64,000 bases of DNA from Candidatus Bathyarchaeia archaeon (GTDB lineage Archaea > Thermoproteota > Bathyarchaeia > Bathyarchaeales > Bathycorpusculaceae). Below, piece by piece: positions 57,334 to 62,060 of the stretch; the stretch's first letter is position 1; each line of letters opens with the position of its first letter. The notes under the pieces are model-generated. The model was given only the letters and a program-made list of their open reading frames with translations. It was not told where the DNA came from and made no database searches. The stretch is taken from positions 416,001 through 480,000 of the forward strand of contig JBEKKK010000001.1 of NCBI GenBank assembly GCA_050010755.1, written 5' to 3'. The position numbers and the translations under genes are program-made.

Positions 57334-58869
57334 ATGCCCAGAAACCTCATTTCAGATTATAACAGGCTCATGGAGAAAGCCAAAGAACTCGCCATTCTAA
57401 TGTCAGCAGAATCAATCGTCGGCTGGGACATGGAAACCATGATGCCTCCCAAGGGCATCAACCTCCGCAGCCAACAGCTCTCACTGCTCAGCGTAATCGA
57501 ACACAAGATGAGCACGGATCCAGAAATCGGAAAACTGCTCCAAAACATCAAACGAAGCCCACAACACGACAAACTCGACAATATGCAGAAGAGAAACATC
57601 CACCTCATCCAGAAACGCTACGACGAACAGACAAAGCTACCGGAAGAACTCGTCGCCGCCATCGCAAAACAGCAGGCCATAGCAATCGACACGTGGAAAA
57701 AGGCAAAAGCCGCCAAAAACTACCCGATGTTCAGGCCCGAACTCGAAAAACTCGTCGAATTCCAAAAGAAAGCTGCACACATCCTAATGAAAGCCAAACA
57801 AACAGCAACACCATACGACGCCATGATAGACATCTACGAACCCAAGATGACGGCTAAACAGATAACAAAAATCTTCAACGAACTCAGAACAGGACTAGTC
57901 AAACTCCTAAACAAATGCGAAACCGCACCCAACCAGCCAGACATGACCGTCTTGAAACACAAAGTACCCATACCTGTGCAATACAAAATCGCAGTGGCTC
58001 TAGCAGAAACCGTAGGCTACGACGTCACATCAAAACACGCAGGAGGCAGAATCGACCCAACCGAGCATCCGTTCACCACGGGATACTACGACGACGTCAG
58101 AATAACAACACACTACTATGAGAGCATGTTCGCATCCTCAATCTTCAGCGTCCTCCACGAAGCAGGACATGCTATATACGAACAAAACATAAAACAACAA
58201 TGGATGTACCAACCCATCGGCAACGCCGTCTCAAGCGGCTTCCACGAATCCCAATCCCGCTTCATCGAAAACATCATAGGCCGATCCAAAGCCTTCTGGA
58301 CCCACTTCCTACCAAAACTCAAACAAACCGCCAACCCCACCCTCTCAGACCTGAGCCTGGAAAAGTTCGTCCACGCCATAAACCAGGTCAAACCCTCAAA
58401 AATCCGCGTCGAAGCAGACGAAGTCACCTACTGCCTACACATAATCATAAGATTCAACATCGAACGCGACCTCTTCGCCGACAAAATAACCGTCAAAGAA
58501 CTACCCGAAATATGGAACCAAAAATACAAAGAATACCTAAACATAAAAATCGAAAACGACTCCGAAGGCCTAATGCAAGACACCCACTGGGCCAGCGGCC
58601 TATACGGATACTTCCCAACCTACGCACTCGGCAACATCTACGACGGACAACTACTCACAACAATGGAAAAAACCCTACCAGACTGGAAAAAACAAGTAGC
58701 CAAGGGAGACCTCAACCAAACAAGAACGTGGCTCACCAAAAACGTCCACAGCCAAGGAAACCTCTACGACCCAGCTGAGCTAATCAAAAAAATCACAGGA
58801 ACAGAAATAAACGTAAAACCCTACCTAAACTATCTCAACGAAAAATACTCACAACTCTACGACTTCTGA
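57334..58869 (+). CDS. Carboxypeptidase M32 (Taq-like)
   Basis: WD.ETMMP, HPF, DVRITT, HEAGHA.YEQ, HESQS, IRVEADE, QD.HW, GYFPTY.LG. Confidence 0.96.
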   Translation: MPRNLISDYNRLMEKAKELAILMSAESIVGWDMETMMPPKGINLRSQQLSLLSVIEHKMSTDPEIGKLLQNIKRSPQHDKLDNMQKRNIHLIQKRYDEQTKLPEELVAAIAKQQAIAIDTWKKAKAAKNYPMFRPELEKLVEFQKKAAHILMKAKQTATPYDAMIDIYEPKMTAKQITKIFNELRTGLVKLLNKCETAPNQPDMTVLKHKVPIPVQYKIAVALAETVGYDVTSKHAGGRIDPTEHPFTTGYYDDVRITTHYYESMFASSIFSVLHEAGHAIYEQNIKQQWMYQPIGNAVSSGFHESQSRFIENIIGRSKAFWTHFLPKLKQTANPTLSDLSLEKFVHAINQVKPSKIRVEADEVTYCLHIIIRFNIERDLFADKITVKELPEIWNQKYKEYLNIKIENDSEGLMQDTHWASGLYGYFPTYALGNIYDGQLLTTMEKTLPDWKKQVAKGDLNQTRTWLTKNVHSQGNLYDPAELIKKITGTEINVKPYLNYLNEKYSQLYDF

Positions 58870-59048: not shown

Positions 59049-59325
59049 AAAACCAGCTCCACAAACCAGTTTTACCCCACTAACAACAACTCAAAGTATA
59101 TAGCCTTAACGATACCAAACCAGCATCCGCACAAAAACAGCAACCAAACAGCACAACAACCCAGCCATCCACGTACAACGCACAGGGCACGCATCAAGCA
59201 AAACCCAACTTGCCCAGCGCACCAACAGACACTGCCGCTAACATGCCGAAAACTTTACAACACTCAGCAACACTCGACACCTAAACGCCGAATCACCTAC
59301 ACATCTAACATTTTCTCGCGCACAC

Positions 59326-59342
59326 TCCGACAGTTTTAAATA
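59326..59342 (+). promoter_or_regulatory. TATA box for the HTH-fae-hps gene
   Basis: TTTTAAATA at 59334-59342, about 25-37 nt before GTG 59367 / ATG 59379; preceded by TCCGACA. Confidence 0.6.
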
Positions 59343-59366
59343 CCACTTACGAAAGCAAATAGCGGT

Positions 59367-60833
59367 GTGAATAGTCAAATGTCGGAACACAATGTTAAAA
59401 AACCTGAAACTAGAGAAGAGTTTGTCGACATGCTCCTAGAAGCCGCCAAAAAATCTGCAGAAGACCGCGGCGCCCCAAAACCCAGACCGACAAAACCGAC
59501 AATCCTCGGAACAGCCGAAGCCTTAAACATACACAGAGACACCCTCTACGCCTGGCTCAAAGAGTTTAACGTCGACTTCAAAGAAGTATCAGACGCCATC
59601 CCGACAGAAACCCCGTCGACATACGGCGACGCAACTGGAAAAGTCTACCTCATCGGCGAAGCACTCGTCGGAGAAGGCAACGAAGTCGCACACATCGACC
59701 TCCTCCTAGGCGACAAGAACGGACCCGTCGGAAACGCCTTCGCCCAAGGCATGTGCACTCTCTCGGCAGGGCACACCCCGCTACTGGCCGTCATACGCCC
59801 CAACCTCCCACCCAAGCCGCACACGCTCCTCGTCCCCAAGGTCACGGCCAAAAACATGGAAGACGTAAACAAAATCTTCGGACCCGCCCAAGCCGCCGTA
59901 GCCAAGGCTGTCGCAGACGCGGTAGAAGAGGGAATAATTCCACCCGAAAAGATAGACGATTGGGTCATCGTGTGCAGTGTCTTCGTCCACCCAGCAGCAA
60001 CCGACTTTCGAAAGATATACCACTACAATTACGGAGCCACCAAACTGGCCCTGAAACGAGCCCTAGCAAAATATCCGCCGCTGGAGAAAATACTCTACGA
60101 CAAGGACAGAGGCAAACATCCGATAATGGGATTCAAAGTTCCGCGCTTATGGAGACCACCCTACCTGCAAATTTCACTCGACAACCCCGAACTGGAAAGC
60201 GCAAAGAGAATCATAGCTCAGCTGCCTGGAAGCGACAGAATAATCATCGAAGTAGGCACCCCGCTCATCAAGAGATACGGAACAAAAGTGATAAACGAAC
60301 TCAGAGAAGGAGCCAAGAGCATGTTCTTCGTTGCCGATCTGAAGACCCTAGACGTTGGAAAAGTCGAAGTCGACCTCGCCTACGACGAAACCGCAGACGC
60401 CGTCGTAGCCTCCGGACTCGCACCAGCAGAAACAATCGACGCCTTCGTCCACGAAGCGAAGAGACTGGCAACATACGGAGTCGTGGACATGCTCAACGTC
60501 GAAGACCCCCTCAAAAAACTCAAGTCCCTCAAAGAATTCCCAGACATAATAATCCTGCACAGAGGAATAGACCAAGAAACAGGAAGAACACACGGAATGG
60601 AAATCATCCCCGAAATACGCCAAACCTTCAAAGACAAAAAATTCCTCATCGCCGTGGCAGGTGGAATAGTGCCCGAAACAGCCCGCGAAGCCCTACAGAA
60701 AGGCGCAGACATAATTATCGTCGGCCGATACATAACCCAGTCAAAAGACATCGAACGCGCAGTAAGAGACTTCCTCGAAACAACACCAGAAATGAGAGAA
60801 GACATAGACCTCTTCAGAGTACACGTCGAATAA
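59367..60833 (+). CDS. fae-hps: Bifunctional formaldehyde-activating enzyme / 3-hexulose-6-phosphate synthase with an N-terminal HTH extension
   Basis: Fae: IGEALVGEGNEVAHIDL..G.K.GPVG, GHTPLLAVIRPN, FGPAQAAVAKAVAD, NYGATK; Hps: PPYLQ..LD, IEVGTPLIK, ADLKTLD.G, HRGID.E, VAGG, VGR. Confidence 0.95.
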   Translation: MNSQMSEHNVKKPETREEFVDMLLEAAKKSAEDRGAPKPRPTKPTILGTAEALNIHRDTLYAWLKEFNVDFKEVSDAIPTETPSTYGDATGKVYLIGEALVGEGNEVAHIDLLLGDKNGPVGNAFAQGMCTLSAGHTPLLAVIRPNLPPKPHTLLVPKVTAKNMEDVNKIFGPAQAAVAKAVADAVEEGIIPPEKIDDWVIVCSVFVHPAATDFRKIYHYNYGATKLALKRALAKYPPLEKILYDKDRGKHPIMGFKVPRLWRPPYLQISLDNPELESAKRIIAQLPGSDRIIIEVGTPLIKRYGTKVINELREGAKSMFFVADLKTLDVGKVEVDLAYDETADAVVASGLAPAETIDAFVHEAKRLATYGVVDMLNVEDPLKKLKSLKEFPDIIILHRGIDQETGRTHGMEIIPEIRQTFKDKKFLIAVAGGIVPETAREALQKGADIIIVGRYITQSKDIERAVRDFLETTPEMREDIDLFRVHVE

Positions 60834-60869
60834 ACCCATCCACCACTCTTTTTCTTTTTCACAATTTTG

Positions 60870-62060
60870 TCAGAACACCAAGAAGGAGACAAAAGCCGCC
60901 AAAAAGATTACTCCAGCGACTAGGAAAACCTGAAAGAAACCGAAAGCCTGCGCGACAAATGGACCCGCAAGAGAACCAACCGCAGCGCCGATGCCCATCA
61001 AAACATTGATCAAACCAGCCCTGCCAGGCGGTATGAGCTCCATGAACAAAGATTCAATACGCACAGTAAAGACTGCAGCCAACAACCCCATCAAGATTAG
61101 AACCCCCACAGTCAAAAACACGCTGAACGATGATTTCACCAAGGCCGCAATCAACAAGAGAGTAAGCAGGCTACGAGCTAGAATGATGCCCCACACGCGC
61201 GATCCACCACCAGACGTTTCGGTCTTGCGGCCAGCGAACACGTACCCTACTACTCCCCCACCGGAATTCAAAATGAAAACTGCAAAAACAATCGCCGACG
61301 ACATCGCAAGATTCTTACTGATGAAAATTGGCAGAGGCGTAAAGAGTATGTTCGTAGCCAATGAAAAAAGCGCCAGCGCACAACAGAACGCAGCCACATT
61401 CTCAGTCTTCAACCTCTCATTAAGACCCTTGCCGTCCATCATTCTGGAAGCAAGAAAAATACCGCTTGACGCGAAACTAACTCGCTTCTCCATGCTCACC
61501 AAGCTCCTCTCAAATATCATCGGAGGATCCACAACGAATATTGCAGACAGAACAAAAGCCACGAAATTAAGCCCCGCAACCAAAAAAAGCGTGTTCGCCG
61601 CCCCAAAGCTGTAAAACGAAGCAAAAAAGCCCAACACCAAACCGATCAGCGTCCCAATTTCCGTGAACCCCTCATAGAAAGCAAAATTCTTCTCCCAATC
61701 CTTATGCGAATACAACTCCGAAATCAGAACATTCTTGGGAGCCTCGTGAGCAGCATGAAAAATCGCCACCAGCGCATATATCAAAATTAGCAAAGCAATG
61801 TCCGTTGTAAAAGCAAACAAGCTCAACAGAACACTAACAGCCAAAAACGCAAGAAGAATAAAACGTTTATAATGCCGCGTCTTGTCGCACAAGTAACCCC
61901 ACAGGAAAGAGGCAGGCATAGCCGCGAACAGCGCTATACCCGTGATTATGCCAACATAGTACAACCCATGGACCTTGTCGATACTAACTAGATAAAGCGG
62001 CAGAAAAATGGACAATAATCCGAAGCCCATTTCATGAAAGAAGAACCCTATCCGCCACAT
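60870..62060 (-). CDS. MFS transporter
   Basis: About 12 TM helices, WG.LCD....K.F motif-A-like sequence. Confidence 0.88.
   Translation of the reverse strand: MWRIGFFFHEMGFGLLSIFLPLYLVSIDKVHGLYYVGIITGIALFAAMPASFLWGYLCDKTRHYKRFILLAFLAVSVLLSLFAFTTDIALLILIYALVAIFHAAHEAPKNVLISELYSHKDWEKNFAFYEGFTEIGTLIGLVLGFFASFYSFGAANTLFLVAGLNFVAFVLSAIFVVDPPMIFERSLVSMEKRVSFASSGIFLASRMMDGKGLNERLKTENVAAFCCALALFSLATNILFTPLPIFISKNLAMSSAIVFAVFILNSGGGVVGYVFAGRKTETSGGGSRVWGIILARSLLTLLLIAALVKSSFSVFLTVGVLILMGLLAAVFTVRIESLFMELIPPGRAGLINVLMGIGAAVGSLAGPFVAQAFGFFQVFLVAGVIFLAAFVSFLVF

Follow-up and report, generated by a model that had tools for sequence, protein, structure and literature searches.

In PutA of Proteobacteria, a ribbon-helix-helix (RHH) domain is fused to proline-catabolic enzymes, and the protein acts as an autorepressor. 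Archaea offer a comparable case in RbkR, a riboflavin kinase/regulator in which an enzyme is fused to a DNA-binding domain of the helix-turn-helix (HTH) type; according to the published account, its operators are predicted by comparative genomics and vary between lineages, its own gene belongs to its regulon, and its DNA binding is shown experimentally to be tuned by substrate and product (PMC5397151). As for formaldehyde, the response of the hps-phi (hxlAB) operon of Bacillus subtilis to this compound is governed by HxlR, a winged HTH protein (MarR/DUF24); it is described as an activator and as a protein in its own right, which a Cys-Lys bridge made by formaldehyde switches on (PMC7835342). 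The canonical archaeal Fae-Hps, of the methanogen type, joins a formaldehyde-activating enzyme (Fae) to Hps, a 3-hexulose-6-phosphate synthase, and its family model starts at the Fae domain. The gene described here lies in a stretch of 64,000 nucleotides from a Candidatus Bathyarchaeia archaeon (GenBank assembly GCA_050010755.1, contig JBEKKK010000001.1, positions 416,001 to 480,000), called the window throughout, and encodes the same two catalytic domains in the same order; the protein adds in front of them a predicted HTH of about 90 residues, conserved in one order of the class and hereafter called the head, while head-less forms of about 400 aa occur in other orders of Bathyarchaeia. Comparison of related loci makes it probable (roughly 0.6) that this Fae-Hps is a self-regulating enzyme-repressor which controls its own gene. 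With respect to RbkR, as portrayed in that source, the enzyme is another one, the DNA-binding domain of RbkR is a winged HTH and several riboflavin genes are its targets, whereas the boxes of Fae-Hps lie at its own gene only and are known from comparison; with respect to the account of HxlR, head and enzyme form a single chain, and the positions of the boxes point to repression.

The gene appears as one long open reading frame (ORF) on the forward strand, running from GTG 59367 or ATG 59379 to 60833. The NCBIfam equivalog for Fae-Hps (NF009833/PRK13307) recognises the product with 578.9 bits against a cut-off of 274, and positions 2-390 of its 392 are aligned to residues 90-483 only (residue numbers being counted from ATG 59379), so that about 90 N-terminal residues are extra. 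An earlier note on this DNA had described these residues before Fae, had quoted from them the peptide TILGTAEALNIHRDTLYAWLKEFNV and had stated that the canonical enzyme begins at the Fae domain; the three statements hold, since Pfam and the PRK13307 coverage delimit the extension, the peptide is present in it and the PRK13307 model is devoid of it. With regard to the coordinates then reported, 59367-60833, the ORF and its forward strand stand, but the start is likely 12 nt further in, since the N-termini of the homologues begin with MS.. at the position of ATG 59379 and not at that of GTG 59367. The coding sequence would therefore span 59379-60833 (forward strand; 484 aa plus stop; supported by the ORF, Pfam, NCBIfam and homologue searches), and its start codon is ATG in 79/81 of the loci compared below and GTG in 2/81. 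When residues 1-92 alone were used as query, 594 proteins (clusters) were retrieved at E<=1e-3 among 640 candidates; within the 120 matches listed, all 120 carry Fae and OMPdecase, most of them being 479-488 aa long. In an alignment of 51 sequences, 16 residues of the extension are invariant (S2, K8, P9, P40, T41, A46, H52, R53, D54, T55, L56, W59, L60, F63, V65 and F67). By this conservation the extension is a translated, conserved part of the protein. That translation should begin at the Fae domain, leaving the upstream frame unexpressed, is effectively excluded by the comparison, since the frame is open and strongly conserved as protein in all 81 loci and in the 594 clusters, a TATA box is conserved before the upstream ATG, and the window has no ATG between residue 18 and the start of the Fae domain.

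At least 167 loci encoding the extension were confirmed, of which the best 80 were kept and, together with the window, make up the 81 loci. Contigs titled Bathyarchaeota, Bathyarchaeia or Bathyarchaeales hold 75/80 of them, the remaining 5/80 being titled "miscellaneous Crenarchaeota group" (1), "uncultured archaeon" (2), "Limnocylindrales" (1) and "Methanocella" (1, a metagenome-assembled genome). A full-length match was present in 32/41 relatives of the window's genome, and in a class-wide sample of 401 Bathyarchaeia genomes the head of the window's type (HTH-A) was found in 127, always fused to Fae-Hps. By family it occurs in f1 (94/103), f6 (10/11), f7 (18/18), f2 (1/1), f3 (2/2) and f19 (1/2), and it was not found in the other families searched, for instance f11 (0/25) and f24 (0/71). 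HTH-A is present in one copy per genome, with the exception of G136, which has a second, decayed copy. Moreover, every genomic match of the head lies in an open frame of 267-612 aa, mostly of about 480-560 aa, with the exception of a fragment in G025, and no free-standing gene for the head was found in the 401 genomes. The apparent stand-alone head of G025 (89 aa) sits at a contig end and was discarded as a cut Fae-Hps, and the short homologues, P0138 among them, are most likely fragments as well, P0138 being 63-64% identical to the N-termini of Fae-Hps of family f6. A separate observation is P0129 (153 aa), in which an N-terminus of the HTH-A type is followed by non-Fae sequence without a Pfam match; it could represent another fusion partner or an assembly chimera.

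When the 160 nt before the start codon were lined up for the window and the 80 other loci, a near-invariant tCCGACAnnnTTATATAca became apparent. In the window, a proximal box CCGACA (59327-59332, forward strand) adjoins the TATA box at the position of the B recognition element (BRE), and a CCGACA lies 2-5 nt 5' of the TATA box in 81/81 loci. The TATA box itself, TTTTAAATA (59334-59342, forward strand), reads TTATATA or TTAAATA in 81/81 loci and begins about 41-44 nt before the start codon, which confirms that a TATA box at these positions precedes the extension, as had been proposed. A distal box, TCGACA (59274-59279, forward strand), identified by sequence reading and matching CCGACA at 5/6 positions, is located 53 nt upstream of the proximal one; a direct CGACA is found 52-55 nt upstream of the proximal box in 45/81 loci. 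On the other side, an inverted box TGTCGG (59380-59385, reverse strand) covers the start codon (ATG 59379-59381) and codons 2-3, and the coding sequence opens with (A/G)TGTCGG in 81/81 loci, an exact inverted copy of CCGACA placed 50-54 nt (mode 52) downstream of the proximal box. In fact, the codon of Ser2 is TCG in 81/81 loci, as against 13.9% TCG among the other Ser codons of the gene. The spacings of 54 and 52 nt, that is, about 53 nt or some five helical turns, would place the boxes on the same face of the DNA. In many loci (for example L048, L049 and L081), a conserved cagagagcgctGAGGc, comprising an AGCGCT palindrome and a GAGG motif resembling a Shine-Dalgarno sequence, is also seen between the TATA box and the start; the window is without this element and has GGTG at 59364-59367 instead.

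The array continues into the coding sequence, where two direct CCGACA boxes (59487-59492 and 59496-59501, together 59487-59501, forward strand) encode Pro37-Thr38 and Pro40-Thr41, and a further one (59601-59606, forward strand) encodes Pro75-Thr76. Across the loci, the P37T38 and P40T41 pairs are written CCGACA in 119/143 cases and the P75T76 pair in 60/64, compared with 6/46 for Pro-Thr pairs at residues >=80 of the same gene, 6.9% (n=1662) in long open frames of the window's genome and 8.0% (n=226) in open frames flanking the loci; the genome control consists of stop-to-stop frames of >=200 aa in all six frames and takes in some non-coding frames. Codon fixation was assessed on 78 loci, 3/81 having been dropped for a short ORF stretch. 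In these, the share of ACA is 92% at T41 and 99% at T76, that of CCG at P75 is 91% and that of TCG at S2 is 100%, to be compared with a top codon of 50-54% for the equally conserved T11, T45 and T55, 45% for P9 and P116 and 48% for S129. Codons 64-66 (AAT GTC GAT), which spell an inverted TGTCG, are also unusually fixed in most loci, the window having AAC there. Overall, the CGACA/TGTCG core reaches a density of 16.6 per kb between -120 and +300, the remainder of the gene having 3.1 per kb. Judged by codon usage, it is the choice among synonymous codons at Pro-Thr pairs that maintains the CCGACA copies of the coding region. A weak further candidate is TGTCGACA at 59423-59430, with overlapping core boxes in both orientations over codons 15-18; it is specific to the window, a CGACA core being present here in 2/81 loci only.

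Regarding the rest of the genome, the 64-kb window has a single CCGACA-N3-TTWWATA composite (0.18 expected), and so has the window's whole genome of 2.19 Mb, in which the fae-hps locus is the densest CCGACA cluster, with 5 boxes in 350 bp and no more than 3 in any other span of this size. Concerning further targets of a regulon, no other cluster above 3 boxes and no other box-plus-TATA composite was found in the window's genome, and the spans with 3 boxes were rejected as candidates, 11 being seen outside the locus against about 8 expected by chance (a hand estimate, Poisson). Each of five other genomes of the HTH type contains the exact composite once, and in 4/5 it is placed at fae-hps.

The remaining orders of the class allowed the boxes to be compared between heads. 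A class-wide search with the whole protein matched 211/301 genomes at E<=1e-20, and in other Bathyarchaeia orders fae-hps is either shorter or of similar length with an N-terminus which does not align. From these, 46 loci were taken and 2 were dropped, L119 as a motif mis-hit and L131 for having no motif. A head KGLVRAPGRITQEQYRFLEELVEQGRFSSVSEAVRAAI is present on 25 loci (L106-L110, L114-L116, L120-L130 and L132-L137); its profile matches the solved ParD antitoxins 3kxe (E 4.6e-5), 7b22 (1e-3) and 8c24 (2.2e-3) together with CopG/Arc/MetJ proteins, while Pfam RHH_1 and ParD_antitoxin remain just under their cut-offs. By these profile matches it is an RHH head, of a ParD-like sort. Such RHH-headed Fae-Hps proteins are the closest parallel to PutA, which is likewise a bifunctional enzyme with an N-terminal DNA-binding head and which represses its own promoter; PutA differs in its unrelated bacterial enzymes, in carrying an RHH where the window has an HTH, and in its membrane-association switch, which is not suggested for Fae-Hps. 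A second HTH head, ..LNIAEMAQKYNVSRDTIERRL.., was seen on two loci only, L111 (G051) and L112 (G073), that of L112 scoring above the Pfam cut-offs for HTH_7, HTH_23 and HTH_28. Furthermore, L113 is a distant HTH-A from another order, and L117 (the second copy of G136, on C94) is a decayed HTH paralogue, with HRD changed to QLD and PT to LT. The head-less group comprises 14 loci chosen for open frames of about 400 aa with 3-19 codons before the Fae motif, plus a 15th, L118, grouped with them for an open frame without recognisable head, a Pfam scan not being part of its assignment. One genome, G202, has an HTH-type and a head-less copy of fae-hps.

The promoters of these groups carry different boxes. 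RHH loci present a palindrome, GTGACAC-N5-6-G.CACA, about 10 nt before the TATA box, with TTGTGACAC about 52 nt upstream of the palindrome, and one RHH sub-lineage has GTGTCC repeats instead; both loci of the second HTH (2/2) have TTGCGGCA repeats on the two sides of the TATA box (GCGGCA boxes); L113 keeps ACGACA-N3-TATA; and the promoter of L117 is without all boxes. When fixed patterns for the three kinds of box (A, R and B) were scored over 450 nt, the 81 HTH-A loci gave 81 with the A-box, 3 with the R-box and 5 with the B-box, the 25 RHH loci 0, 24 and 0, the two loci of the second HTH 0, 0 and 2, and the 15 head-less loci none of any kind; L113 had the A-box (1, 0, 0), and L117 scored zero for all. 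The R pattern had been set on 8 loci and was then present in 16/17 loci taken later, L137 being the exception. Moreover, 5/5 RHH-type genomes have a single copy of the RHH palindrome each, always at fae-hps, the reversed-pattern control giving one match in one genome. The loci include the identical pair L116 and L122 and many near relatives, so that the number of independent events is lower than these counts. Across the sampled loci, the box type changes with the head type, and boxes are absent where the head is absent or decayed. In the RHH loci L106-L110, a conserved upstream gene (...KAACDIP.EF...) was also observed, which ends about 100-130 nt before the TATA box of fae-hps, the distal box lying just past its stop codon.

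As regards the fold of the head in the window, an N-terminal HTH domain was assigned to residues 1-76 (59379-59606, forward strand) from AlphaFold models, a fold search and the phmmer relatives with their Pfam families. The AlphaFold model built from a 19-row alignment places helices at residues 12-29, 42-48, 53-62 and 67-73, and these helices recur in the full-length model, where a linker of low confidence comes after them at residues 77-88; the helix 53-62 (HRDTLYAWLK) is likely the recognition helix. An exhaustive fold search (VIA) was headed by the AraC-type 3mkl (Z 6.0) and sigma-28 1rp3 (Z 5.1), with the TetR-type 3e7q (Z 5.1) and the P22 small terminase 3p9a (Z 5.0) in further rows, and the titles of all 50 rows listed name DNA-binding proteins (AraC, TetR, sigma factors, P22 small terminase). 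The top rows of Foldseek, all above E 1e-3, were the DNA-binding domains of TetR, EilR, Rex, DegU and NtrC4. When the head profile was compared with the sequences of solved structures, only a chance-level match came up, an influenza matrix protein (E 0.61), which was discarded. The firmer link to HTH proteins is provided by the sequence relatives rather than by the fold matches. In fact, phmmer with residues 1-90 against 1.84 billion representatives gave 34 hits, mostly Fae-Hps fragments, and all seven non-Fae hits checked are HTH proteins recognised by Pfam. P0149, the nearest significant non-Fae relative (phmmer E 1.1e-4), matches GP3_package (P22 small terminase) at 5.8e-17 and shares PTI.G.A..L.VHRDTLYAW.KEFN with the window protein, while P0142, P0148, P0150, P0151 and P0152 are tandem HTH_23/HTH_28/HTH_17 repeat proteins. 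Among such tandem-HTH proteins resembling the head, 3 to 19 repeats were noticed, P0123 being a giant of 4332 aa with 19 matched stretches.

In the Pfam scan of the window protein itself, HTH_23 (E 0.017) and HTH_28 (E 0.024) gave 15 bits against cut-offs of about 25, two families to which the non-Fae phmmer relatives have strong matches, followed by HTH_29 (E 0.061) and GP3_package (PF16677; E 0.11, 13.1 bits against 29.4). Outside Fae-Hps, the head comes closest in sequence to the HTHs of the P22 gp3-type small terminase (GP3_package) and of the homeodomain-like HTH_23/HTH_28, the window protein differing from them in scoring below the cut-offs of these families and in being without the oligomerisation part of the terminase. 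The earlier note had seen in this N-terminus an HTH of the Fis/PucR type. Its HTH-like nature is upheld by the modelled three-helix HTH and by the non-Fae relatives, which are HTH proteins; the Fis/PucR assignment is not, since HTH_8 (Fis, PF02954) has no match to the window protein at E<=1 in Pfam and HTH_30 (PucR, PF13556) reaches E 0.23 and 11.7 bits against 27, over residues 45-60 only. HTH_8 was found in two fragment homologues alone, at E 0.02-0.05, below its cut-off. According to the models and relatives, the head belongs with the three-helix HTHs that are homeodomain-like or terminase-like, and is not specifically Fis or PucR.

By sequence and model, an intact enzyme and a DNA-binding domain are present in one chain, and comparison predicts operator sites at its own promoter, namely conserved, genome-unique boxes which flank the TATA box and the start codon and co-vary with the head. 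A unique box array over the BRE/TATA and the start codon, with boxes tracking the fold of the head and absent without it, is as expected of control of the own promoter, and the box positions, one at the TATA box where transcription factor B (TFB) binds and one about 10-15 nt into the presumed transcript, favour repression. In this way, the reading of the protein as an enzyme-regulator hybrid, already put forward in the earlier note, has gained strong comparative evidence from the promoter boxes. The mechanism that we infer is the following. Fae-Hps of the reverse ribulose-monophosphate (RuMP) pathway, with the HTH tethered N-terminally by a flexible linker and the enzyme presumably an oligomer, would present several heads to a CCGACA array confined to its own gene, with one box about 53 nt upstream of the promoter, one at the TATA/BRE, an inverted one on the start codon and at least three in the first 230 nt of coding sequence. 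Occupation of the BRE/TATA flank and of the site just downstream would hinder the TATA-binding protein (TBP), TFB and RNA polymerase, giving negative autoregulation, and a substrate or product (formaldehyde, ribulose 5-phosphate (Ru5P) or hexulose-6-phosphate, or a tetrahydromethanopterin (H4MPT) species) may release the enzyme from the DNA. Fae is a pentamer, and the ten chains found in the two solved Fae entries, 1y5y and 1y60, are consistent with this; with several heads tethered to it, an oligomer of the enzyme would match phased half-sites arranged in an array. Binding of the boxes by the head, repression, the oligomeric state and modulation by ligands are all predictions of this scheme.

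A wider reading, which we put forward tentatively and hold to be possible rather than probable, is that such a single-gene feedback device arose at least twice independently, perhaps three times (with the HTH, the ParD-like RHH and the second HTH), and that in the HTH form the operator array lies partly inside the coding sequence of the head, so that the protein would read the text of its own gene, a many-headed oligomer wrapping about 330 bp. With Pro-Thr written CCGACA and Met-Ser-Gly/Glu written ATGTCGG, protein sequence and operator would have become locked together in evolution, and the boxes, phased at about 53 bp, would link formaldehyde and pentose flux directly to the dosage of the enzyme.

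Several points weigh against the proposal of a self-regulating enzyme-repressor. The confidence of the head model is moderate (mean pLDDT, the predicted local distance difference test, 69), the fold search stays at Z <=6.0, where values <8 may reflect a common helical arrangement only, Foldseek against the PDB gave nothing at E<=1e-3, and all Pfam HTH matches of the window protein lie below the curated cut-offs, the best having E 0.017. With respect to the boxes, counts of the 81/81 type come from related loci and overstate independent events; the R and B patterns were set with the data already in view, and their loose matches in HTH-A loci (3/81 and 5/81), attributed to chance, show the limited specificity of these patterns. 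The one exact composite of G297 lies inside another gene, the fae-hps promoter of this genome having the box with N4 spacing and its coding start being GTGTCGG. Finally, the GACA core shared by A-box and R-box leaves room for a common separate factor, and an action in RNA is conceivable for the boxes located downstream of the transcription start.

These last two points lead to the alternatives. Should the boxes be real gene-specific operators of a separate transcription factor, the head would serve nucleoid tethering or a protein contact, and the common GACA of CCGACA and of the GTGACA of the RHH lineage could point to one factor across lineages. This explanation appears unlikely, because the box type follows the head type and boxes are missing without a head or with a decayed one (0/15 and L117), so that a separate factor would need gain, swap and loss in step with the head three times; moreover, boxes at this gene only fit a self-contained loop. 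It is rather improbable that the transcribed copies act in RNA, either through pairing of the UGUCGG at the start codon with a downstream CCGACA or through binding of the mRNA by the head, so as to control translation. The start-codon copy and the three coding-region copies are indeed in the transcript and mutually complementary, but the best-conserved copy (81/81) is upstream of the TATA box and the distal one further up, so neither should be transcribed; in addition, the complementarity extends over 6 bp only, the seventh base being unpaired in the window, and the loops would measure 100-220 nt.

An explanation without any regulator would take the extension as a structural or oligomerisation appendage devoid of nucleic-acid binding, and CCGACA-TATA as an unusual strong core promoter. 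The sub-threshold Pfam HTH scores and modest fold Z scores are what it can call upon, yet a core-promoter element would recur at other genes, whereas CCGACA-TATA is unique in the genome. Furthermore, it leaves unexplained both the constraint on synonymous codons in the coding region and the unrelated DNA-binding folds at the same position in other lineages (RHH; HTH_7/23/28 in L112), and it is accordingly held to be very improbable. Control of fae-hps by its own product thus remains the preferred interpretation.

Regarding the enzyme itself, Pfam finds the Fae domain followed by the Hps domain of the OMPdecase fold. The former spans residues 92-250 (59652-60128, forward strand; PF08714, E 2.7e-69; solved Fae 1y5y, E 2e-41), and the latter residues 261-464 (60159-60770, forward strand; PF00215, E 1.7e-33; TIGR03128, E 1.7e-38), with matches also to the solved Hps structures 9lj9, 3f4w and 3ajx. 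From the scores of the hidden Markov models and the many invariant residues in both domains, both are presumed to be catalytically intact. The linker between HTH and Fae (59607-59651, forward strand) is poorly conserved, with variable alignment columns and a pLDDT <50 at residues 77-88. A T-rich run after the stop codon (60849-60859, forward strand) is a possible archaeal terminator, by sequence reading only. Upstream lies an M32 carboxypeptidase gene (57334-58869, forward strand) and downstream a convergent gene for a major facilitator superfamily transporter (60870-62060, reverse strand); with 330 bp of intergenic region on one side and a convergent gene on the other, fae-hps stands alone. 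The upstream intergenic stretch 59049-59330 is strikingly rich in A+C and poor in G+T on the forward strand, with long runs such as caaaaacagcaaccaaacagcacaacaaccc, and the same bias was noticed at the related loci L038, L055 and L058.

In a survey of Bathyarchaeia, the reverse RuMP route is reported for almost all orders, as is the H4MPT Wood-Ljungdahl pathway, and fae is described as widespread (PMC10321748), which fits a housekeeping role of Fae-Hps in pentose synthesis with formaldehyde capture. In the window's genome (a 93%-complete assembly), no 6-phospho-3-hexuloisomerase (Phi/HxlB, TIGR03127) was found above the cut-off, the best match reaching 57.5 bits against 160 (C2:119217-119567, inside an open frame of 384 aa); this partner of Hps may be divergent, or may be missing from the assembly. 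The same genome (G000) has a stand-alone Fae paralogue at C6:18739-19221, 48% identical to the Fae domain, as do many relatives. A further observation concerns PDB 8ub7 chain B, named 'Avd' (290 aa), whose residues 125-286 match the Fae domain at E 5.6e-41 and which may be a fusion, engineered or natural, to a pentamer resembling Fae.

A DNA-binding head on Fae-Hps was not found described in the literature searched, including the portions consulted of PMC11237513 and PMC10321748, whose supplements could hold annotations. As far as the comparison indicates, three traits would go beyond the known examples: the single-gene regulon, the operator copies in the coding sequence of the head, and the repeated independent fusion of different heads to one enzyme. 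Different heads on one enzyme, each with its own boxes, would be a rare natural replicate and support selection for the fusion of a regulator to its target, and in boxes within coding sequence the protein code and the operator code would clearly overlap. Moreover, biosensors could make use of an archaeal repressor that responds to formaldehyde or a sugar phosphate and has one orthogonal operator. To our knowledge, Bathyarchaeia are among the most abundant sediment archaea; pure cultures are few or lacking, and their gene regulation is almost unexplored. In this context, residues 1-90 and the defined array of 6-bp boxes represent a concrete candidate pair of regulator and operator for the class, and suggest that the enzyme itself may set the dose of the pentose-synthesis step in which toxic formaldehyde is released or consumed.

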